Positions 8,660 to 60,523 of a DNA stretch of 64,000 nt are shown piece after piece. The notes beneath the pieces are model-generated. The model made no database searches and was not told the DNA's origin. It saw only the letters and a program-made list of their open reading frames with translations. Source of the stretch: Wickerhamiella versatilis (lineage: Eukaryota); assembly GCA_030867685.1 (NCBI GenBank), contig JAQOWU010000007.1, forward strand, positions 930,001 through 994,000, read 5' to 3'. Within the stretch, counting starts at the first letter, position 1; each line of letters begins with the position of its first letter. The position numbers and the translations under genes were made by a program.

Positions 8660-8920
8660 ATGCCTGACGAGCCAACTGATGATGAGTTAAAGGAAGCTAG
8701 AGGGTTAGTGGACGAAGAAATAAGAAAAATGCATCAAGAGGGTGCCAAATATTTGCCTGAAACAGTAGATCTTTCGCCACCCCAATTGCCAGAGTTGGAT
8801 GAGTTCAAGGATGTTGAAGCATGGCAAGATGCCGAGATAACCAGTCTTCAAGCTCTGAGAGCGAAGGGACCGGCACATTGGAAATATCTTAACGCGGCTG
8901 TCTTCAACTTAACAGAGTGA
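8660..8920 (+). CDS. Short Spf27/Cwf7/BCAS2-like Prp19-complex subunit
   Basis: EARGLVDEEIRK...YLP and LQALRAKGPAHWKYLN resemble the two conserved BCAS2/Spf27 blocks; only 86 aa. Confidence 0.55.
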   Translation: MPDEPTDDELKEARGLVDEEIRKMHQEGAKYLPETVDLSPPQLPELDEFKDVEAWQDAEITSLQALRAKGPAHWKYLNAAVFNLTE

Positions 8921-27739: not shown

Positions 27740-27999
27740 ACAACTTGTTTTTACTCGTTGAATTATAATTTAACCCCTATATGTATTTATGACCAGCGCT
27801 TCACTCTTCCATCGGCCGCAGGATCAGATAATACTGTTCCTATCAACATCTGGCATGTGCGTAGAGGCCTTGTTATGTAATTCGTGGGTAAGGATAAGCT
27901 TGGATGTGTATACCCTTGCCCTTTTATGTGATGAACGTGTAGCACGTACAACTATAAAGACCCCAAGGTATCTCCGCTCTAAGTTTCACACTTAACACT

Positions 28000-28314
28000 A
28001 TGTCTGGACGTGGAAAAGGAGGCAAAGGACTCGGAAAGGGCGGTGCCAAGCGTCACCGCAAGGTCCTGCGCGACAACATCCAAGGTGTAACTAAGCCAGC
28101 TATTCGCCGTCTCGCTCGCCGTGGTGGTGTGAAGCGTATTTCAGCTCTTATTTACGAACATACCCGTATCGTCCTCCGTGGATTCCTGCACAAGGTCATC
28201 CGCGATGCGTATACCTATACGGAGTACGCGAAGCGTAAGACCGTGACCGTGCTTGATGTCGTTTACGCCCTCAAGCGCAATGGCCGAACTCTTTACGGTT
28301 TCGGTACTAAGTAA
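28000..28314 (+). CDS. Histone H4, divergent variant
   Basis: Canonical tail [20 protein letters not shown] with many histone-fold substitutions and a GTK C-terminus. Confidence 0.95.
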
Positions 28315-28796
28315 GTAATCTTTATATTTATTTAGCCTCATGTATGTGTATACACAAACTAGCTGAGTTAACCACCCCCACACGTTGTCGATTCTCGTGA
28401 TGACAGATCATTACCCATCATCAAAAAACGTCCGTCTAGAAACTCGCGATAGTTCGTGATTTTGAACGCATCCCTTTTTTTTGTTACGATTGAAATCGGC
28501 TTGACCATATTGTGACCGGTGGCTCTAGCTAAAATGTCCCATCCGTGGATTCGTTCGCGGTTGCAATGATCTGTCCGAGAGTTTTACTGAATTAAGTGAC
28601 TCTTGATCTTCTGGAAAAATCTGGGCCGCCCTGACTTCTAGTAATTAATTGATTTTTAATCTGTCTGTAGAACCAGTTCTAGTCTTTTTCAGTATTTTTT
28701 CTTGATTAAGTTGCAATATTATTCTGCGTTGTCCTGTATCCTACATCGTACCGCCCTGTTCGACCCACTCCTGCGGTCTCCATGATTAAGTGGCTA

Positions 28797-29042
28797 AAGT
28801 TCTAAGTACCTAGGTGGCTTTTGGTCTGTTTACCCTACTAAATTGGTTTGGTACTGAGCAAAGTTCTGGGTATTTAAGTGTCTTTTATTCTAGTCATCCT
28901 GCTAAATTGGTTTGGTGCTGAGCATTTAAGTGTCTTTTGGTCTGGTTATCCTACTAAGTTGGTTTGGTGCTAATTTCTAAGCATTTAAGTGCCTTTTGGT
29001 CTGGTTATCCTACTAAATTGGTTTGGTGCTGAGCAAACGTTC
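28797..29042. repeat. Degenerate minisatellite, 4 copies of about 50-65 bp
   Basis: Repeated core tttaagtgtcttttggtctggttatcctactaaattggtttggtgctgagca. Confidence 0.85.
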
Positions 29043-29414
29043 TATCTAGGTATGGTTCTTGTTCAATTGACTATCGAGCCAACCAATCTTGTGACCGGGT
29101 CCAATCCTATCTGTTTTCTTGGTTTTAGTATAATCTGGTTTAAACGTCACGATGTTAAGGCTTGGTCACATTTATCGAGCTATGTCTGGATAAATGATAA
29201 TAAGTTATACTGCTAATTTAGAATACATAACTCTAAACCTGGTTCAACCCGGACCACCTAGAGAAGAAAACAAGGAATAAAATAGAAGTACATACGTATA
29301 ATAACACGCGATAATTGCTAATATATAATGGCGTATATACCACCGAGCATATCAGTAGTGGTGGTACAATACACGGATTCGTCATCACACACTTGATCTG
29401 ACTGGGTTGGAGGA

Positions 29415-30077
29415 ATGCAGGACCCTAACGAGGATACTGAGTGGAACGAGCAACTACGAAAGTTTGGAATTCTCCCCGAGAGGCCAGAATCGCCCACAAA
29501 GCAAATAGAGGAGGCGTTCGAGCAGGCACTCGAGAAGCAGCATGCAAACAGACTAGAGGGCAAGTCTCTCGACGAGCTTGACGAACTCGACGAAGACGGC
29601 CTGGAGGACGAGGATTTCATTGAGCAATACCGCCACAAGCGCATGGCGGAAATTCAACAACAGGCTGCACGCGAGAGGTTCGGAGAGGTCGTACAAATCA
29701 CAAAATCCGAGTACAAGGACGAAATCACAGAAGCATCCAAAAACTGGCCCGTTTTTGTTCATATTTCGTCGAGCCAGTCTATCCAGTCCCGATTGTTGCA
29801 TGGGCTACTGCTGCGAGTTGCCCCGCGATATAAAGACATCAAATTCGTGGAAATCGACTGTTCGCAAATCAATGAACGCTTCCCGTTTTCACAATGCCCG
29901 ACTATCCTGATCTACAAAGAAGGGAATGTTGTATTCCAGCAAGTGACGCTTAGTGCATTTGGGGGCAATTCGGCGAACTTAAGGGACGTGGACGATATGC
30001 TGACGCGGGCAAAGGTCGTGGGTGAATCAGACCCGCGGTTGATAGTGAACAAGGACGAAGATTCAGAGGATGACTAG
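29415..30077 (+). CDS. PLP2: Phosducin-like protein
   Basis: MQDPNEDTEWN..LRKFGILP, YRHKRMAE, thioredoxin-like fold with PTILIY. Confidence 0.93.
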   Translation: MQDPNEDTEWNEQLRKFGILPERPESPTKQIEEAFEQALEKQHANRLEGKSLDELDELDEDGLEDEDFIEQYRHKRMAEIQQQAARERFGEVVQITKSEYKDEITEASKNWPVFVHISSSQSIQSRLLHGLLLRVAPRYKDIKFVEIDCSQINERFPFSQCPTILIYKEGNVVFQQVTLSAFGGNSANLRDVDDMLTRAKVVGESDPRLIVNKDEDSEDD

Positions 30078-37584: not shown

Positions 37585-38769
37585 ATGATTGGTTTTCTGT
37601 TTGCTCTGCTTGGGGCAGTAAATGCTTCCAGTGCGATAAGGCACAAGCGAAGTATGGGTCTCGAACGGCGCTATACACCAGAGATGCCGGACGGCGACAT
37701 AACTGTTTTCAAGTGTGCAGAGACCTACAAGCCAAAGGTTCTCGTGGTGAGTCTATTTGAGCCTGAGTTGGAGGTATGGCACGAAAATTTAGACTTTGTT
37801 CATAATATTACCGTGCCTGGGCTGTCTCCGTTGTTCCCTCATGTTTACTGCACCGAGGACTACGAGATATGCAACGTTGCCACAGGGGAGGGCGAAGTTA
37901 ATGCTGCCACCACTATGATGTCGGTGGCTACCTACCCCAAATTTGATTTATCTCAGACTTACATTCTAACCGCAGGTATTGCTGGCTGTAGCCCCTATGA
38001 AGGGTCGCTAGGATCGGCAAGTTTCTCAAGGTTTACTGTTCAGGTTGCATTGGAGTACGAAATTGACTCTCGCGAGATGCCTGAAAACTGGACCACCGGT
38101 TACTTCGCATACGGAACTGATGGCCCAGGCATGTACCCAGGAAATTGGTACGGCACTGAGGTATTCGAGTTCAATGAGGCTCTACGGGATAGAGCCGCAG
38201 AACTAGCATCTTCTGCGACACTAAATGATACCGATTCTATGAAGGAATTCCGAGTGCAATATAATAGCTCTGAAGCTAAAAAGGCACCCGGTATCCTCAA
38301 GTGTGATGTGGCCACATCTGACGTTTATTATACCGGCCCAATCCTTTCCTCAGCCTTTTCAAATGTGACCAGTATGCTCACCAATGGCACAGGTGTCTAC
38401 TGTATGTCTGCCCAAGAAGATTCTGGTATTGCAGAGGCTGTGCTCCGGGCTGCCAGGTTTGGTCTTGTGGACTACTCGCGACTTGTGGTAATGAGAACCT
38501 GTTCAGATTATGACCAGGGTCCTCCCGGTATGGGCGCAGCAGAGTATTTCACACAGAGTGATCAAGGTTCTGCATTCCCAGCAGCAATCAGTAATATTTG
38601 GAATGCGGGTTCGCCATTCGTGTTGGATGTTGTTAAAAACTGGGATAACCTCTATGCAAACAACACATTCAAGCCCGAGAATTACGTGGGCGACGTTTTT
38701 GGGTACTTAGGTGGGGAGCCTGACTTTGGAATTGGATCCTATTATCACGTTGAATATGTGGCAGCTTAG
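37585..38769 (+). CDS. Purine nucleoside permease (NUP family), secreted/surface
   Basis: Signal peptide; PKVLVVSLFEPE..W, NITVPGLSPLFP, TGEGEVNAA, YEIDSREMP, AQED, RTCSDYD. Confidence 0.88.
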   Translation: MIGFLFALLGAVNASSAIRHKRSMGLERRYTPEMPDGDITVFKCAETYKPKVLVVSLFEPELEVWHENLDFVHNITVPGLSPLFPHVYCTEDYEICNVATGEGEVNAATTMMSVATYPKFDLSQTYILTAGIAGCSPYEGSLGSASFSRFTVQVALEYEIDSREMPENWTTGYFAYGTDGPGMYPGNWYGTEVFEFNEALRDRAAELASSATLNDTDSMKEFRVQYNSSEAKKAPGILKCDVATSDVYYTGPILSSAFSNVTSMLTNGTGVYCMSAQEDSGIAEAVLRAARFGLVDYSRLVVMRTCSDYDQGPPGMGAAEYFTQSDQGSAFPAAISNIWNAGSPFVLDVVKNWDNLYANNTFKPENYVGDVFGYLGGEPDFGIGSYYHVEYVAA

Positions 38770-38927
38770 CTTAACTTATCCCAGCCCAGCGTAACCCAGC
38801 GCGGTCTAGTTTAGCTTAATTCGTATACCACAATAATGTCAATTTTCAACAGAAATATTTCAATAAATTTGTAATGCTCCACGTGTGACAATATAACTTC
38901 TCCATAGATAACATTCGGTATGCCGAA

Positions 38928-39012
38928 TTTCCTAAATGGGAACGCCTAATGGCAGTCCTAACTCTAATGTGAATATCAGGGGGTGGATTAATAACACAAT
39001 TTCCTGTTTAGG
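38928..39012. promoter_or_regulatory. Two Mcm1/MADS-like CC(N6)GG sites with an adjacent HMG-type ACAAT, upstream of the CAAX ORF
   Basis: TTTCCTAAATGGGAA (38928-38942); ACAAT-TTCCTGTTTAGG (38996-39012). Confidence 0.5.
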
Positions 39013-39304
39013 TGCCTCTATTGACGGCTGAAATAGGCAGCGGTAGAATTAATTTGGGTCTTTAAATGCATAATTCGAGTTTTAATTTGCAAAAAAACAT
39101 ATTTGATTATTGTATAAGTCTTGCTATCGATCTAAATAATGAAATTATGCACATTGTGACGACCGACTCTGCCTGGATCTCGTGAGCAAAACCACCATAT
39201 AGCACACCCTTGCCCGAAATATAGCTATTTAAACACACAATAATTCCCACAGAAACCATCATCAACACCTTTTAACACTCACCAACACTCACCTCTATTT
39301 GCCA

Positions 39305-39454
39305 ATGCGTTCTGCTCCTACTCACAACGTTATCTCCGAATCTAACCCCTCTGGATATAAGCCGGAAGCTGCCCCTGCTGTTGAGAATGCCCCTGGTCCC
39401 GAGGTGGAACAGCCTAAGGATGAGTATTACAACAACTACTGCACCATCTGTTAG
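39305..39454 (+). CDS. Putative a-factor-type lipopeptide pheromone precursor (49 aa)
   Basis: MRSAPTHNVISESNPSGYKPEAAPAVENAPGPEVEQPKDEYYNNYCTIC*; terminal CAAX, KDE|Y like KDN|Y of Mfa1, TATTTAAA and A/C-rich leader upstream. Confidence 0.8.
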   Translation: MRSAPTHNVISESNPSGYKPEAAPAVENAPGPEVEQPKDEYYNNYCTIC

Positions 39455-39593
39455 GTCGCTGCTTCCATAGAAGCCTACATTAGTTAGATTTAGATTTAGA
39501 ATTATAACCCTTATTTTGTATCACTCACAAATGCTTGGATATATTTCTTATATTCTATTATACTGTGAATATTGAACTCATGGAAAAAATAAT

Positions 39594-41885
39594 TTAGTTG
39601 ACTCGTGCTCGCTCGCGCTCTGTTCTAAGCTTAAGCACCCGCTGTTTTAGCTCATTAGTCTGTGCTATAACACGCTGCCAGTCATCAGATGTATGATTAC
39701 TGGAGGTATCGGGCTCTTCATGCCTCGTAATAGGGACAATTTGCTGTCGCGGCCCCGTGAATTTACGCTGCAGTGACATCTTGGTAAGTTTCTGTGACAT
39801 CTGCTCAGCGTCAGCAATCGGTCTCTGCCGCAACGCTGTCAATTCATCACGGGAAATCATAAGTTGTAGTTTCAGGTCACTGATTTCTCGTTGTTGTTCA
39901 CTAACCTTGGCCTCTGCTGTCTTCAATCTTTCCAGGATATCTTGGGGTATAACTGGTGCAGAGGACGGCGGTGGCATTGTGTCACTACGCAAGCGATCAT
40001 GAGGCCGTGCTGGCGACACAAGACGCCTTCTTCCGGTGGGCGGCGGCTGGCGGGCAGGCGTGAATTCGGCGCTCTGTAAGGTGCGCTTGTTTGGGCCCAT
40101 CTTAGGTGTGGAGCTATAGCGTGGAGCTGGGGAGCCGATTGCTCGCGGGCTTGATAACTCACTCTTCATTGTACCTGGACGTAGAGGGCTCTGTACCAGC
40201 CTGTCGTGGTCGGAGCTAGGAGGTTGGGGGGCAGACATTCTTGGCGGAGGTTTTGTAGGTTCCTTGAACACCGGGGGCTTTGTCCGCGTACTATTTGCAG
40301 GGGGCTGAGGCGGACGAATAGAGGGCGGCTTGGCTGCCTTTGGAGCTGGTCCTTTGTTAGGCACCTGCTTCGCAGTTTGATTATTATCCGTCACCTTCAC
40401 AACTGCCTGCGCTGCAGACTCATCAACCCGAGCTCTACGGCCATCATCCAGTTTTGCTAAGATATCTTTGATTGCTAGAGGTCCACACTTCTTAAGCAGT
40501 CCCCCCAAAACCGCAGCACCAGCCTTCCTTATGGGTTCCTGGGGATCTCCAAGGAGTTTCGCCCCAACGTTGCCAATATTCACCACAATTCCACGTGGAA
40601 AAGTATCCGTCGTTATGCATATGAGATGGGCAAGATAGAGAGCTGACTCCAACTTTATAGCGGGTATTCGATGCGAAGTACCTGCCAGGACAGGGTCCAC
40701 TATAAGGTCAAGCGAACTCCAGCGTAGTAACGTATCCAAACAATTCTTGATGCTTTCAACAAAAGTTGGCTTCTTCTCCTTGAAGCGCTCAACAAGCGGC
40801 TGGACTAAATGTGGGACATACTTGCGAAAGTCTTGCCGAAGACCACTTGCAAGTGACTGAACGCCCTGTACAGCCAAACCTGCACACATTTGATTAGTAT
40901 CCTTGGATAGAACTCTTTCAAAGACAGAAACAAGCATTGAATAGTCGCCTGCCGCCAACCTTGGCTTGTTTAATAACGGGACAACGGTATCCAGAGCTTC
41001 CTTACGCTCCTTCCACTTCACAGAGGAGACATCTGCATCGAAAGAGGGAGGGATTCTACTAAGAACTTCAGTTTCTGGGGTTAAATCCCAATCATCATCG
41101 TCTGCACCATCCTCCTTTTCTGCCCCTTCCTCGTCTGGCGTCACATTCGCATCGTCCAAGTCTTCTTCTACCTTATTTGCCTGAGCCGACTGTTCCCGTG
41201 TCGCCCTTGTAGGATTTGGAGGCCCTGCGGACTGCCATTGGCGTTCAAGGTCCTTTAGCATGGCAGGCTTCAGTTCACCTAGAGCTGCAGCCAGGGCAGC
41301 TGGCTTGACCCATCTACTCAGTGCTACTGTTAAAGAAGCAGCAGCGGTCCTCACATTTTTGTCAGTATGGGAAAACACTGCAGGCAGTGACTGTATTACC
41401 GGCTTTGGGTTTACGACGGGGGATCCGAACTCGGTGAACACCTGAGTTAGAGAATTAAGCAATTGTACCATCATTTTTGGAGGCAATTTCTTCTTCATCA
41501 GCTCAACCAAATCATTGACAGTTGCTTCAGCATCAGCATTAGCAACGAATGCCATTACTGCCTCGGCTGCCGCTGTTTTCACGCTAGGCTTCACAGCACC
41601 AAGGCCTTTCTCAGAAAGTGGTTGGCATACCGTGGAACGTATACGCTCTGCATCTTGTGCATCGCACTTACTTAGATGCACAGTTACCAGGCGAATTCCT
41701 GTATCTAGTGCCACCACATTCGCATCAGTAGCCGCATCACGTAAATTACTAGGCATAGCAGGAAACCCGTCTAAGATTCCTTTCTCTGCCTGCTCAAGCG
41801 CATCCTTGTAAGCACTCTGGCGTATTTGCCATTTGGCGTGTGACCACCTGGACTCCAGCGGAAGACGAAAGTCCTCGTCGTCCAT
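39594..41885 (-). CDS. STU2: XMAP215/Dis1 microtubule polymerase
   Basis: Two TOG domains (LPLESR..H.KW..R..AY, DANVVAL, FSHTDKNVR, KWKERKEAL), basic linker, coiled coil. Confidence 0.93.
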   Translation of the reverse strand: MDDEDFRLPLESRWSHAKWQIRQSAYKDALEQAEKGILDGFPAMPSNLRDAATDANVVALDTGIRLVTVHLSKCDAQDAERIRSTVCQPLSEKGLGAVKPSVKTAAAEAVMAFVANADAEATVNDLVELMKKKLPPKMMVQLLNSLTQVFTEFGSPVVNPKPVIQSLPAVFSHTDKNVRTAAASLTVALSRWVKPAALAAALGELKPAMLKDLERQWQSAGPPNPTRATREQSAQANKVEEDLDDANVTPDEEGAEKEDGADDDDWDLTPETEVLSRIPPSFDADVSSVKWKERKEALDTVVPLLNKPRLAAGDYSMLVSVFERVLSKDTNQMCAGLAVQGVQSLASGLRQDFRKYVPHLVQPLVERFKEKKPTFVESIKNCLDTLLRWSSLDLIVDPVLAGTSHRIPAIKLESALYLAHLICITTDTFPRGIVVNIGNVGAKLLGDPQEPIRKAGAAVLGGLLKKCGPLAIKDILAKLDDGRRARVDESAAQAVVKVTDNNQTAKQVPNKGPAPKAAKPPSIRPPQPPANSTRTKPPVFKEPTKPPPRMSAPQPPSSDHDRLVQSPLRPGTMKSELSSPRAIGSPAPRYSSTPKMGPNKRTLQSAEFTPARQPPPTGRRRLVSPARPHDRLRSDTMPPPSSAPVIPQDILERLKTAEAKVSEQQREISDLKLQLMISRDELTALRQRPIADAEQMSQKLTKMSLQRKFTGPRQQIVPITRHEEPDTSSNHTSDDWQRVIAQTNELKQRVLKLRTERERARVN

Positions 41886-42811: not shown

Positions 42812-43226
42812 TGAGTGGCCGGATCCTATGTGACTAAGCAGATGAACCTGGCACCGAAACCATTGTGGGCGAGCGAAACTATTACAATATGTAGGGGATT
42901 TAGCCGGCCAGTGTAAAGTATTTAGACAAACCTACAGATGTATTTATTACTACTTACATAGTCCAACCCCATTAAATTACCTGGTACTAATATCTTCGTA
43001 ACCATAGTGTACTTTTTGGTTATAACGCTACACTTACAAACTTGTTGCAAATTACGATTGAAAGTCAGAGAAAGGAGAACAGAGCTAGTACCACCGATCT
43101 CCTACTATACTTTCCAGGATCGAGATAACTATGAGAGCACTTAGTAAATACGTGAGGCATTCAAGCGCCAGGCGCTAATTTATGACAACGAGAATTATAT
43201 AATTTTAACAACATCGTTGACGAAGT

Positions 43227-43607
43227 TTAGTTAGAGACCTGCTTAGAGCCCTTGGCCTTCTTGGATTCCTTTGCTTTGGCGACAGCCGCGTCACGCTCAG
43301 CCTTGCGGACTTCGGGACGGACGGCACGCTTCTCTTTGAGCTGGTCAAGAGACAGACCAACGATACCACGCTGGCCCTTAACAACCCGACGGTTACGACG
43401 ACGGCTGTTCTCCTCAAGGTGTCCCTTCTTGTGCATACGTCGGTAAAGCACAGTCCAGGCGATACGTCTCGGGTTCTTCCGCTGGTCGAAGAGCGAGTTG
43501 CTCTTTGACGAGAAGAAGCGGAAGATCTTCGAGTCACCACGCACGAACAAACGGCCACGACCCGGGTATATACGGGTGCCGGAGAAGCTGTCCAACTCAA
43601 GCTTCAT
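43227..43607 (-). CDS. RPL24: 60S ribosomal protein eL24
   Basis: MKLELDSFSG..IYPGRG.LFVRGDSKIFRF, KNPRRIAWTVLYRR.HKKG. Confidence 0.96.
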   Translation of the reverse strand: MKLELDSFSGTRIYPGRGRLFVRGDSKIFRFFSSKSNSLFDQRKNPRRIAWTVLYRRMHKKGHLEENSRRRNRRVVKGQRGIVGLSLDQLKEKRAVRPEVRKAERDAAVAKAKESKKAKGSKQVSN

Positions 43608-43639
43608 TGCTTCAACAACTACCTAATCCACGACAGGCT

Positions 43640-43895
43640 ACGTAGGGAGGGTAGAGTCGGGAGAGAGCACGGCCCTAAGCCCTACTTAGTCACAAAATTA
43701 CATACTAATGTGCCACTCTCCTCTTTCCGATTAAGGAAGATATAATTATGAGTTCCACTATTTTTTTCACGTGGTGAAGTAAAGAATATTTGGAGGCTAA
43801 CGAGAGATAATTGTAATAGTAGCCTCGATTCCCCTAGAACTTTTTAGCTCATTCTAAAGTCAGACACCGAATTACTAAGATAGGGTATAGGGCTT
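43640..43895. promoter_or_regulatory. Bidirectional ribosomal-protein promoter with Tbf1-like, Homol-D-like and Cbf1 motifs
   Basis: GCCCTAAGCCCTA (about 43672), TAGTCACA (43687), CACGTG (43768), TAGGGTATAGGG (43881). Confidence 0.5.
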
Positions 43896-43949
43896 CGTGG
43901 CTGGCACGCTCACTTCTGTTAGTACCTCGTCAAGTCGAACAGTCGTTAC

Positions 43950-43976
43950 GCCGGAGCAGAACCCTGTCGAGATGGC
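43950..43976 (+). promoter_or_regulatory. L30-binding kink-turn autoregulatory RNA element spanning the RPL30 AUG
   Basis: GCCG-GA-GCAG(AACC)CUGU-CGAGA-UGGC mirrors S. cerevisiae GACCG-GA-GUG...CGC-AGAGA-UGGUC. Confidence 0.8.
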
Positions 43977-44295
43977 CCCTAAGTCGAAGAAGTCTGGAGA
44001 TACTATCAACTCAAAGCTTGGTCTCGTTGTTAGGTCAGGTAAATACACCTTGGGCTACAAGAGCACCCTTAAGGCCTTGCGTCGTGGTCAGGCCAAGCTG
44101 ATCATTGTCGCTTCCAACACTCCACCTCTCCGCAAGTCTGAGATCGAGTACTACTCGATGCTTTCCAAGACTCATGTTCACCACTTCAATGCTGGCAACA
44201 ACGAGCTTGGTACTGCCTGTGGTAAGCTGTTCCGTGTCGGTGTCGTCACTATTCTGGACGCTGGTGACTCGGACATCTTGTCTACCGTGGAGTAA
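43972..44295 (+). CDS. RPL30: 60S ribosomal protein eL30, intronless
   Basis: [51 protein letters not shown]. Confidence 0.97.
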
Positions 44296-45181
44296 ATCTT
44301 GTAGCATTAATGTTGATTGGCAAGAACTCGGATTATGTCCGTATCCAATGGTTTTAATGTTTTGCAAGTGATTTAAAAAAGCAGGCATGACTTAAGACTG
44401 TCTTGCATTTTCAAACCAGTGTAATTTTTTAGGTTTTTCTATAGTTATCCTAAAAGTCCAAGATTTATCAGGCAATTTGTCCTTATGTAATGCTCTCTGT
44501 GTGTTTGTAGACGAGAATTAAGAACGACATTTGGTATTTCATGATGCTTAGTGTAACTCATAATTCACGCCTACGTATATTCTGATAAATGTCGCAGTTC
44601 CAGTTAGCCTTCTGGGAGACGAAGATATTGAGATTTTCTCTCGGAGTTTTTACCTCCTGGCTGTCGATTGTGTTTGGATCACTCAATTGGCATTGATAGA
44701 AGTGCTAGGGCTACTGGGTTTCTTAGACCAATATGTTATGACTTTGTCTTATGCAATGAAAGAGGCAAGTGTTTTGGCTCAGTTCAGTTATGCTATGGGA
44801 TATATCATTGGGTAAGGTTGTATAAACCTTTGACAAGTCCCCTTGTTTTGATTTGCAATACAAAAACAGAAGTCTTGAGTGACAAAGAGGAGATATTTGA
44901 GTATTCAAAACTCTAACCAGGTACGTGGTGTATGTATGACGTTTACCTTACATTCGTATATCTGTGCACTGCTTGGCTAGTAGAGCAACTAGCAGTTCAT
45001 GTATTAATTGCCATGGAATGTCACTTTTAGAAGCAGATTCTCCATTGTAAGTGGGTAAGCATGCTTTCCAACCTTAGGCTATAACTATCCTGAAATCCAA
45101 AAATTATCTATGTGTTAGCAATATTAATTATTGAATTAATTATTAGAAAGATTATTATGAGCCTGGAAGTTATCAGGCAAT

Positions 45182-45457
45182 TCACATAAGTCCACCAGAT
45201 CGAACAGGAGCAATTCCGGTGTTATTGCCGGCACCGAGAGAAGCACCAACACCAGTTGCCTGGTTATTGGGGGTCACTGTCTTACCAGTCTGGTATGGGG
45301 AACGAGCAGGCTCCATATTAGCACTCGCAATGGCTTTCTTGACGTCGTCTTTGAGCGATTTCACTGACGACTTAGACTTGGATGGTTCCAAATCTTCGGC
45401 AGGCTTGTCTTTCTTGTCCTTGCCTTTGAACGGGTTAAGTTTGCTCAGATCGACCAT
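45182..45457 (-). CDS. Small basic low-complexity protein of unknown function
   Basis: 91-aa ORF with good start context (CAACATGG) and biased codon usage. Confidence 0.6.
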   Translation of the reverse strand: MVDLSKLNPFKGKDKKDKPAEDLEPSKSKSSVKSLKDDVKKAIASANMEPARSPYQTGKTVTPNNQATGVGASLGAGNNTGIAPVRSGGLM

Positions 45458-45779
45458 GTTGCTGTATATGGGGGAAAACTTTTACTCAGCTCAGTCTTTT
45501 AGAGATAACAAAACCCAATACCTTATGACTAACAAACCTTTTTTGTAGATAGTGATAGGAAAAATCCTTTGAAAGTATATTACAATTATCCTTATGTGTA
45601 TATATGACATATATCGGAATTTAGCCGGTAAAATAGCTCATTCAATTTCCCGTTTAATGACGCTTGTAAATTACTGATATTCAGGTCTAAGGTATATTTG
45701 ACTTTTACCAAAATTTCATGGGATCCAAAGCCTTCTAAGGAAAATAAGGTCTTTGCCCCAACCAGAATATTTTCTAAAA

Positions 45780-48356: not shown

Positions 48357-49526
48357 ATGACGACAATGACCGTTCGCCGCAGCTTGCGTTACCATAGTAG
48401 TGCTCAGGACTCTCGAACAGTAGAGTTCGAGATTAGCCCCGATTATGAACTTGGTGATGTGATAGGGGAGGGAGCATATGGTGTCGTAGCCAGTGGTATT
48501 CATGTTCCTTCAGGCACTCGTGTTGCTGTTAAAAGAATACATCCTTTTGAGCGAGCTATGTTTTGCCTGAGAACTCTCCGAGAAATCAAGCTTCTACGCC
48601 ATTTTCGTAACGAGAATATCATCTCAATATTGGACATTCAGCGTCCAGGTTCTGTTGATCAAATGAATGACGTATACCTTATCCAAGAACTGATGGATAC
48701 TGATCTATCTAGAGTCATTCGCTCACAGTCTTTGACCGATGACCACTGTCAATATTTCACATACCAGCTCTTACGAGCACTGAAGGCACTGCATTCGGCA
48801 GATGTTCTTCATCGTGACTTGAAGCCTGGAAACCTCTTGATAAATACGAATTGTGATCTCAAACTGTGTGATTTTGGTCTTGCAAGGTCTGCATTTCCCC
48901 AGGCTTCGAGTCAAGACGCCAATGTTGGATTTATGACAGAATATGTCGCTACGAGATGGTACAGAGCACCTGAAATTATGCTTACGTTCCAGCATTACAC
49001 AAAAGCTATCGATATGTGGTCTGTCGGCTGTATTTTGGCAGAAATGTTAGGGGGTGTTCCACTGTTTCCTGGTAAGGACTACCGTGAGCAGCTCAATCTC
49101 ATCCTTGAGGTTGTAGGTACGCCTACTAACGCAGACTACTATAGCATCAAGTCAAAAAGGGCTCGACAGTACTTAATGAGCTTACCGCCTCGCAAACCCC
49201 AAAGTTTCAAAGCATTATATCCCAAAGCGAATCCACTTGCGCTTGACCTTCTTTCCAAACTCCTCACATTCAATCCTGCCCAGAGGCTTACTGTGGAGCA
49301 GGCATTGCAGCATCCTTATATGGCAGCCTATCATGACCCAGCTGATGAACCAGAAGCTGCTCCTCTTCCGCAGAATTTCTTTGACTTCGAAAGCGAAGGG
49401 GAACTGCCATTATCCGAAATGCGCAGACTTGTGTATGAGGAGATTAATAGAGAACCTACGGAACCGCAAAGCTCACCCCAGCCTTCGGTACCACCTCATA
49501 TACAGGTCCCATTAACGCAAGCTTAA
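48357..49526 (+). CDS. Fus3/Kss1-type MAP kinase
   Basis: GEGAYGVV, FCLRTLREIKLL, HRDLKP, activation loop MTEYVATRWYRAPE, TFQHYTKAID. Confidence 0.93.
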   Translation: MTTMTVRRSLRYHSSAQDSRTVEFEISPDYELGDVIGEGAYGVVASGIHVPSGTRVAVKRIHPFERAMFCLRTLREIKLLRHFRNENIISILDIQRPGSVDQMNDVYLIQELMDTDLSRVIRSQSLTDDHCQYFTYQLLRALKALHSADVLHRDLKPGNLLINTNCDLKLCDFGLARSAFPQASSQDANVGFMTEYVATRWYRAPEIMLTFQHYTKAIDMWSVGCILAEMLGGVPLFPGKDYREQLNLILEVVGTPTNADYYSIKSKRARQYLMSLPPRKPQSFKALYPKANPLALDLLSKLLTFNPAQRLTVEQALQHPYMAAYHDPADEPEAAPLPQNFFDFESEGELPLSEMRRLVYEEINREPTEPQSSPQPSVPPHIQVPLTQA

Positions 49527-49695
49527 TTGCATTCCTACATCCAGCATGTCGATTAACTGCACGTAAATTCTTTCAATAAAATAATTTAAGAAACCCTGCA
49601 GCTAAAATAGTACTTATAAAGCATATGAAATTGTGTCATGGAATTATTGGTTTGCGCACCCGTCGTTTCATAGCAGCTCATCAAATTTAAAGAAG

Positions 49696-59068: not shown

Positions 59069-60523
59069 ATGAGTGAGCCGGTCCTGTCCGTCACTCCGAT
59101 ACAGGATAGTACCAGAAGAAGGACTGCAGACGGCCTCATGGCTGGAATTAAGGGTATAGAGCCGCTTGAGTTTGCGAATTTGGATAGGGCGTCGACGCTG
59201 GTCATTGATGTCCGTCCCATAACATCATACGCTGGCGGCCACATCGATGGTGCCATCAGTATCTGCATACCTAGTACACTTCTGAAGCGACAGACATTTG
59301 GATATAGTCGCATTATAGAGCTTGTGGCACCTCAAGAAAGTGCAAAGCTCAGAAGGATACCTGAGTACAAGGCAGTTGTTTTTTATGACTCGTCTTCTAT
59401 AAAACTACGGAGTGACACGCCTCTTGCACGAACGCTCCAAAAATTTATGAATGTTGTCGATGAAAAACATCTTTTTTTTCTGGCAGGGGGTATAAGTGCC
59501 TTGTCGTCAATTGCACCTGGACGTGTAGTGACATCGGTGGAACACCATCCGAAGTCACCATTCAATCTATTACCAGTAACAACTGAGGTACGAGGAATAT
59601 TGGGATCGACTCCGTTGAGCTCCAGATCACCTTTTTTTTCTTCGGATGAGTCGACAACCATTAATGCTCCGGAGCACGTTGATATAGATCGTTTGCCACC
59701 CTGGCTAAAGTATGCTCTTTCAGAGTCGCGTGAGGGTCATGATTTTGTTGCTGAAGAATTCTCTCAACTGCAGGCCAGTGAAATGAGCCGTATACAAAAT
59801 TCACTTTTCACTGGTGATCCTGGAAAGAACCGCTACTCCAATGTCCACCCCTACAGCCACAACCGGGTGTTAGCTGGTGATAAATATGTGAATGCGAGCT
59901 ATATTCAGTCCCATTTAGTTCCACGTCATCGTTATATCGCTACACAGGCTCCCGTGCCAGCAAGTTTCAATGATTTCTGGAGACTAATCCTGGAACATCG
60001 TGTTCCTCTTATCTTAATGCTTACAACGCTATTCACGGAAAGTGGTGCAGTGAAGGGGCATAAATACTGGAACTCGGGAAATTATGGTGATATTTACCTG
60101 GAAACCCTCGAGACATACCGGGAGGATGATTTCGTCACGAGGAAAATTAGGGTTTCAAACAATGAGGGAAACGTTCACGAATTATTGCATATTCATTATG
60201 AGCAGTGGCCAGACCTTGGAACTCCAAATAATATACAAGAGCTACTTCGGCTCGTAGAGCTCAAGCAGCGGTTGGTAAGGGATGATTCACAGGTAGTCGT
60301 CCATTGTTCTGCCGGCTGTGGTCGAACAGGTACCTTTTGCACCATTGATACCGTAGTCGCTTTTCTTCGGGAGCAGGCTCCTGATCAACAGCGACAAGAC
60401 CATGTGGATCATGTCTTTGAGACAGTTCGTGAATTTCGAAACCAACGTGTATTTATGGTTCAAAATCAAAGGCAGTTGCAATTATGCTATGACGCTATCA
60501 TAGCATGGCTGGGAAATAGATAG
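59069..60523 (+). CDS. Rhodanese + tyrosine phosphatase (Ptp2/Ptp3/Pyp1-like)
   Basis: IDVRP...Y..GHI.GA...CIPSTLLKR; KNRY, YIATQAP, WPDLG, VHCSAGCGRTG. Confidence 0.92.
   Translation: MSEPVLSVTPIQDSTRRRTADGLMAGIKGIEPLEFANLDRASTLVIDVRPITSYAGGHIDGAISICIPSTLLKRQTFGYSRIIELVAPQESAKLRRIPEYKAVVFYDSSSIKLRSDTPLARTLQKFMNVVDEKHLFFLAGGISALSSIAPGRVVTSVEHHPKSPFNLLPVTTEVRGILGSTPLSSRSPFFSSDESTTINAPEHVDIDRLPPWLKYALSESREGHDFVAEEFSQLQASEMSRIQNSLFTGDPGKNRYSNVHPYSHNRVLAGDKYVNASYIQSHLVPRHRYIATQAPVPASFNDFWRLILEHRVPLILMLTTLFTESGAVKGHKYWNSGNYGDIYLETLETYREDDFVTRKIRVSNNEGNVHELLHIHYEQWPDLGTPNNIQELLRLVELKQRLVRDDSQVVVHCSAGCGRTGTFCTIDTVVAFLREQAPDQQRQDHVDHVFETVREFRNQRVFMVQNQRQLQLCYDAIIAWLGNR

Follow-up and report, generated by a model that had tools for sequence, protein, structure and literature searches.

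Introduction

Genes for lipopeptide pheromones are routinely left unannotated and homology finds only their close relatives, so that the mating biology of most non-model yeasts is undescribed. The a-factor precursors Mfa1 and Mfa2 of Saccharomyces cerevisiae have 36 and 38 residues, respectively (PMC5993090), and a-factor-type precursors at large are characterized as shorter than 100 residues, usually 23–50 (10.1101/2021.09.28.462209, among other sources). In Komagataella phaffii, MFA1 and MFA2 (40 aa) were, according to PMC5993090, found only via RNA data and their CaaX ending and are barely expressed outside mating. The same account gives these two paralogues predicted EDN and ADN cuts that yield 17-mers, with deletion and synthetic peptides providing the proof.

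Yarrowia lipolytica MFA1–4 constitute a validated example from an early-branching yeast lineage. The corresponding report gives 3–14 MFA copies per Yarrowia species, conserved across six species, with a variable pro-region and an invariant mature part. It also counts 100–700 N...CAAX candidates per yeast genome, among which true genes were separated by conservation and paralogues (10.1101/2021.09.28.462209). For Blastobotrys (Arxula) adeninivorans, whose genus is said to have Yarrowia as its closest sequenced relative, an MFa (a-pheromone) candidate has been reported (PMC4022394).

Here we describe a candidate of this type in a 64-kb stretch of yeast DNA (64,000 nucleotides; hereafter the window). 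It resembles S. cerevisiae Mfa1/Mfa2 in being a short, cytosolic precursor that lacks a signal peptide, has a hydrophilic N-extension, ends in a CaaX box, and carries Lys-Asp-x immediately ahead of an aromatic residue that precedes the Cys. Maturation is predicted to follow the S. cerevisiae route (Ram1/2, Rce1/Ste24, Ste14, Ste24 plus Axl1, and Ste6). In contrast to Mfa1/Mfa2, the candidate is longer (49 aa), has no detectable sequence similarity to them, carries Glu where the Axl1 site has Asn, and ends in CTIC instead of CVIA. Its putative cut-to-Cys segment comprises 6 polar residues, versus 12 mostly hydrophobic ones in S. cerevisiae. Like the K. phaffii genes as described in PMC5993090, it is an unannotated short ORF without homology to the a-factors of other yeasts; unlike them, it is single copy within the 64-kb window, lacks an Asn site, and is known from sequence and RNA reads. 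As in Yarrowia MFA, the N-terminal region varies and the C-terminus is invariant, here among three strains.

On the combined analysis, we assign a probability of roughly 0.55 to the reading that this unannotated, independently transcribed gene encodes an a-factor-type (farnesylated, carboxymethylated) mating pheromone precursor. If that reading holds, the candidate is a new example of a known gene type, with an unusual Tyr/Asn-rich C-terminus.

The locus

The candidate ORF sits between two genes that converge on it:

37585..38769, + strand: purine nucleoside permease gene, upstream neighbor (Pfam NUP, E 3.8e-126)
39305..39454, + strand: candidate lipopeptide pheromone precursor, ORF plus stop (sequence; codon score; intact in two other strains)
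39594..41885, − strand: TOG-domain Stu2/XMAP215-like gene, downstream convergent neighbor (E 2.8e-51)

As read from the sequence, the ORF runs from an ATG at 39305 to a TAG stop at 39452–39454 on the + strand and spans 49 codons. The encoded peptide is MRSAPTHNVISESNPSGYKPEAAPAVENAPGPEVEQPKDEYYNNYCTIC, with the C-terminus YYNNYCTIC-stop. A first-pass annotation of this DNA had reported a 49-codon ORF ending in KDEYYNNY-CTIC within an 820-bp gap; the ORF matches exactly, and the flanking stop codons that enclose it are 824 bp apart (38770–39593).

No other of the window's nine convergent gaps is as long, the remaining eight measuring 43–388 bp. Over-long for a convergent gap, it has space, otherwise unexplained, in which a promoter and a gene would fit. 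Searches of the 824 bp returned no Rfam family and no tRNA.

A low-level transcript

Transcription was assessed over 38500–40300 using public poly(A) RNA runs (X6, X9, and X10) that carry the same species label and derive from a different strain. This strain is the third in our comparison, with fixed differences from the window of ~2% in flanking coding sequence. The libraries behave as unstranded, end effects excepted. The first-pass annotation had named the lack of a transcript as a refutation; a discrete poly(A) RNA was found over ~39232–39536 at a low level in all three runs. Within 39232–39536, summed depth per bin (both orientations) was 2.6–7.6 in X9, 2.0–4.4 in X10, and 0.2–1 in X6. 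Compared with the neighboring genes, at a depth of ~20–90, the candidate unit reaches ~5–10% in X9 and X10 and less in X6. In the three runs, the ~300 bp upstream of the transcript are free of reads, every one of the five bins between 38866 and 39170 having zero depth. The features assigned to the transcription unit are as follows:

39226..39233, + strand: TATA-like element TATTTAAA, 72–79 bp before the ATG and 32 bp before the mapped 5′ end
39258..39304, + strand: 5′ untranslated leader, 47 nt, with no upstream AUG (5′ end from three X9 reads; composition count)
39455..39540, + strand: 3′ untranslated region, end approximate (summed depth 3–6 up to bin 39476–39536)

The 5′ end was located from three reads of a single run (X9) in which a non-genomic tail of 22 letters, ending ...GTACATGGGG, immediately precedes 39258. 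We read this tail as the end of a template-switching oligo, added to an RNA at its 5′ end; its + orientation accordingly indicates a + strand RNA that begins at 39258. Strand invasion is unlikely, since the genomic bases just before 39258 are not G-rich. The mapped end falls 32 bp past TATTTAAA and 47 nt ahead of the ATG, and the few reads that cover 39247 indicate that some starts lie further upstream. For a transcript starting at 39258, the ATG at 39305 is the first AUG. The leader (39258–39304) contains 18 C, 15 A, 13 T, and 1 G, in keeping with the A/C-rich leader claimed from the sequence, and TATTTAAA occurs where it had been placed, at about 75 bp upstream.

No splice joint was seen in the RNA reads over the candidate region. 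The 3′ untranslated region borders on the convergent Stu2-like mRNA, whose 3′ end lies at ~39555, where many minus-strand molecules end. A discrete mRNA of ~280 nt thus exists, and the CaaX ORF is the sole sizeable ORF on it. The 40-residue MFA precursors of Komagataella are described as expressed only under mating conditions (PMC5993090), and the low depth of the candidate in ordinary RNA runs is compatible with such silence outside mating.

Two further observations come from the same reads. The NUP mRNA has its 3′ end near 38810, and the RNA-run strain carries an extra A after 39583 (125 of 132 reads, three runs).

Codon usage and chance expectation

The main competitor of a pheromone precursor is an ORF that arose by chance and lies on a minor or cryptic transcript made by Pol II. 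In that case the RNA would be real but non-coding, or the ORF functionless, and the CaaX ending coincidental. We judge this unlikely. It draws on the low RNA depth and on the frequency of C-x-x-x endings: such an ending occurs in 7 of the 355 window ORFs of 25–100 codons, and a strict CaaX rule retains two, the candidate included. The other strict-CaaX ORF (49586..49681, − strand; 31 codons, ending CRVS) lies inside a 169-bp convergent gap and is almost certainly a chance ORF in 3′ untranslated regions, an internal example of a false positive.

The length of the ORF is likewise unexceptional. We generated 5000 first-order Markov shuffles of the 824-bp gap and scored each for an ATG-initiated ORF of at least 40 codons with a strict CaaX end. 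ORFs of at least 40 codons with any ending were present in 85% of the randomized gaps. The natural gap itself holds a minus-strand ORF of 51 codons (39107..39262) that overlaps the promoter and TATA region of the candidate. RNA depth is zero over most of its length, so it is probably a chance ORF and illustrates that ORFs this long arise by chance. Against the chance explanation, an ORF of at least 40 codons with a strict CaaX end arose in only 0.36% of the 5000 randomized gaps (P = 0.0036). A CaaX ORF by chance is unlikely at this locus, yet several are expected per genome.

Codon usage also speaks against a chance ORF. The candidate has a codon log-odds score of 0.21 per codon, compared with a mean of 0.20 (range 0.07–0.35) for 27 long genes of the window, and the other five reading frames at the locus score far lower, from −0.99 to 0.04. 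The "strong codon bias" attributed to the ORF earlier was an overstatement, as a score of 0.21 against a gene mean of 0.20 is gene-like and not extreme. Among the 81 wholly intergenic short ORFs of the window, the candidate ranks fourth by this score. The architecture of the transcript argues in the same direction: the CaaX ORF begins at the first AUG, the RNA is just big enough to contain it, and the TATA element stands 32 bp before the 5′ end.

Taken by itself, the CaaX ending is no more than chance would supply; the other features raise the candidate above this background. We consider it probable that 39305..39454 is an independent, real small gene. Were the ORF a chance one after all, nothing would follow from it.

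The ranking of intergenic ORFs brought out further sequences of note. At least three other top codon scorers among the 81, an LSM protein included, have the look of genuine small genes or exons. Two intergenic ORFs of 86 and 91 aa (8660..8920, + strand, and 45182..45457, − strand) have the highest codon scores of the 81, at 0.30 and 0.27 per codon, respectively. Neither gave a Pfam match, and both are likely unannotated small genes or exons.

Homology searches

A chance ORF would also fit the outcome of the homology searches, none of which returned a homologue. A word-indexed search with the peptide recovered the peptide itself as the sole match (1 of 1 candidates), the Pfam pheromone families gave no family even at E up to 10, and a search of the ESM Atlas with the peptide gave no usable match. 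A degenerate pattern for the last nine codons had no matches in metagenome contigs. Genes of the a-factor type often occur as several near-identical copies in one genome. In a search for such paralogues, the 64-kb window yielded one match at up to three mismatches, the ORF itself, and the protein collections yielded none.

Using phmmer over 1.84 billion representatives, we obtained 14 matches at E up to 0.001, one of which is the query. Six of the 13 non-self matches were examined and rejected, as all are TPR_10/TPR_12 repeat proteins (five by Pfam, one, P0015, by Pfam and BLASTP). We regard these matches as artefacts: the score of P0015 is inflated by a 23-residue stretch with 30% identity that recurs many times.

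Blank searches are to be expected for an a-factor-type gene, because such ORFs are rarely called and their homology is lost fast, detectable similarity among a-factor-type peptides being described as disappearing within ~100 million years. The blanks are therefore no evidence against a pheromone precursor. The exact 49-aa peptide does occur in a protein collection, on a single ENA contig of 598 bp; the neighboring proteins are found on 6–11 contigs of up to 873,793 bp.

Loci corresponding to the candidate were sought through the neighboring NUP gene. A metagenome scan returned three loci at 35–50% identity (L001, L002, and L003). The first was rejected as an orthologous locus, as it is not syntenic and has no Stu2-like gene downstream, and the short L002 (2.4 kb) and L003 (1.7 kb) were left out. 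In a sister species, the NUP protein is 83% identical and is encoded on an 80.6-kb contig; further relatives lie at 52–57%. We take the window organism to belong to the same broad lineage as Blastobotrys and Yarrowia, the other basis for this placement being the 55% NUP match to Sugiyamaella lignohabitans, the nearest named relative on this gene.

Comparison of strains

Long DNA contigs (X2) include one record of 105,982 letters that spans 38500–40300 with 14 differences and must therefore represent another strain. In this strain, the ORF carries one synonymous change. The strain of the RNA runs has H7N, Y18F, and N28Q together with one synonymous change. The ORF is intact in all three strains, which counts against a chance ORF, if weakly at a divergence of ~3%. 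All three amino-acid changes fall within residues 7–28, and the last 21 residues are identical throughout.

This pattern is compatible with selection on the peptide and is no demonstration of it. From 39389 to 39593, a stretch that includes the 3′ untranslated region, neither strain has a listed difference, at a total depth of only ~5–9 reads. Since the invariant stretch extends over the 3′ untranslated region, selection on the peptide cannot be invoked to explain why the C-terminus is unchanged.

Peptide and predicted processing

The peptide has the build of a pheromone precursor: a short single ORF (49 codons) and a hydrophilic N-extension without a signal peptide. Pro, Ala, Glu, and Ser abound in its N-terminal part, and its C-terminal end reads K-D-E-Y-Y-N-N-Y-C-T-I-C. 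It contains no hydrophobic stretch, the highest mean Kyte-Doolittle hydropathy over nine residues being only 0.13, so that a signal peptide is absent; with a net charge of −4 it is acidic. The terminal motif lies directly before the stop:

39440..39451, + strand: CaaX box, Cys46-Thr-Ile-Cys49 (read from sequence)

The box is canonical, with Ile at a2 and Cys at X, and its prenylation is predicted. Cys is accepted at the X position of CaaX boxes. Boxes that pair a Thr at a1 with an aliphatic a2, namely CTVA and CTLM, are reported to be prenylated and cleaved in S. cerevisiae reporters (PMC9231725). A literature search found no occurrence of CTIC as a CaaX box in the 15 papers listed out of 1,218.

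By analogy with the a-factor pathway, Cys46 would be farnesylated by Ram1/Ram2, Thr-Ile-Cys removed by Rce1 or Ste24, and the new C-terminal Cys methylated by Ste14. The N-terminal extension of ~40 residues would be cut off by Ste24 and Axl1/Ste23-type proteases, leaving a short Tyr/Asn-rich lipopeptide for export through a Ste6-type ABC transporter and recognition by Ste3 on cells of the opposite type. Transcription would probably stay at a low level during vegetative growth and rise in one mating type or on starvation, much as in Komagataella.

Where the N-terminal extension would be cut is less readily predicted. The run K-D-E, then aromatic residues, then CaaX resembles the K-D-N|Y site of S. 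cerevisiae, and Axl1 does cut after KDN in that yeast (PMC5993090), as the first-pass annotation had stated. Srikant et al. filter for an Asn-X site 5–20 residues before the prenylated Cys (10.1101/2021.09.28.462209). The candidate has Asn at positions 8, 14, 28, 43, and 44, with the Cys at 46, and falls outside this rule: N43 and N44 leave 3 or 2 residues, and N28, which would give an 18-mer, is Gln in the RNA-run strain. The rule serves as a heuristic and does not strictly define the class.

The first-pass annotation had placed the cut at KDE|Y to give YYNNYC. Described sites end in Asn, and the only Asn at a usable distance (N28) is not conserved; the cut and its product are therefore conjecture. 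We regard as improbable a mature pheromone that consists of only six residues, Tyr-Tyr-Asn-Asn-Tyr-Cys(farnesyl)-OMe, or of even fewer, and is released by a cut after Glu. If true, it would be the shortest and most polar a-factor-type pheromone known. The Axl1/Ste23 step would then have no need for Asn, and N...CAAX sieves would miss whole clades.

A second alternative accepts the gene and assigns it another role, as a real small protein that is farnesylated but does not serve as a pheromone; a micro-protein anchored in a membrane and acting inside the cell would be one example. It rests on the same gene-level evidence as a pheromone precursor, and it would sit well with the polar, Tyr/Asn-rich C-terminal segment, with the lack of the expected Asn-X site, and with low-level expression in ordinary cultures. 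The 40 N-terminal residues are, however, of low complexity and variable among strains, which fits a discarded pro-region rather than a functional domain. Apart from a-factor precursors, budding yeasts are not known to have a class of CaaX proteins of ~50 residues, and we consider this alternative improbable. A genuine CaaX protein of 49 residues, if made by a budding yeast, is most probably a precursor of the a-factor type.

Least credible of all, and very improbable in our estimation, is that the reads stem from a long 3′ isoform of the convergent Stu2-like gene or from antisense RNA, with the ORF off the sense strand: the libraries are unstranded apart from end effects and the Stu2-like mRNA ends ~20–100 nt from the 3′ end of the candidate, but the ...GTACATGGGG tail before 39258 is in + orientation, whereas a minus-strand RNA with its 3′ end at this point would give a run of T, and depth drops sharply between the main Stu2-like end at 39555 and the candidate.

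The earlier designation of the ORF as "the lipopeptide pheromone gene" therefore stands in part. An independent small gene with an a-factor-type build agrees with it, and the departure from the Asn-X rule does not. The added claim that the gene implies mating competence went too far, as the presence of a gene alone does not show mating. A validated a-type pheromone from this little-studied lineage would provide a handle on whether the species is sexual, as well as a new pheromone/Ste3 pair for receptor-ligand and biosensor work. As a precursor without the usual Asn-X site, it would also test the generality of the N-terminal processing rule.

Upstream region

Mcm1 with a cofactor controls mating-type-specific genes, and membership of the a-specific regulon is conserved; Mcm1 also acts on cell-cycle and other genes. 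Two Mcm1-like boxes were noted upstream of the candidate:

38928..38943, no strand assigned: MADS/Mcm1-like box 1 (TTTCCTAAATGGGAAC), ~375 bp before the ATG (minus strand fits TTNCCNNNTNNGGAAA with 1 mismatch)
39000..39012, + strand: second CC-N6-GG box (TTTCCTGTTTAGG), with the same AATTTCCT flank as box 1, 72 bp apart

The published Mcm1 pattern TTNCCNNNTNNGGAAA was taken from PMC1779545. At up to two mismatches it occurs 68 times in the window, compared with 65 expected; a pattern at chance frequency makes box 1 only a lead. The pattern TTTCCTNNNNNGG occurs seven times in the window versus 2.46 expected, with two of these in the candidate promoter, and its count carries low weight because the pattern was defined after the sites were seen. 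For TTTCCTAA there are 4 occurrences in the window against 2.6 expected. The pheromone-response element TGAAACA is absent from the gap and occurs 14 times in the window (12.9 expected). As regulatory sites, the Mcm1-like boxes are at most suggestive, judged from sequence matches.

Other genes in the window

Two stretches of the window, 27740..29414 (1675 bp) and 42812..45779 (2968 bp), have no ORF of at least 150 aa and may hold intron-containing or small genes.

A 389-aa protein kinase is encoded at 48357..49526 (+ strand), ~9 kb from the candidate. Among solved structures it matches S. cerevisiae Fus3 best (E 4.8e-128), with mammalian ERK2 ranking behind, and it belongs to the Fus3/Kss1-type MAP kinases, whose pathway is that of pheromone response and filamentation. 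Fus3-type MAP kinase pathways serve further functions besides mating. A rhodanese plus tyrosine-phosphatase protein is encoded at 59069..60523 (+ strand) and a phosducin-like protein at 29415..30077 (+ strand); in S. cerevisiae, both families include modulators of the pheromone MAPK and G-beta-gamma pathway.
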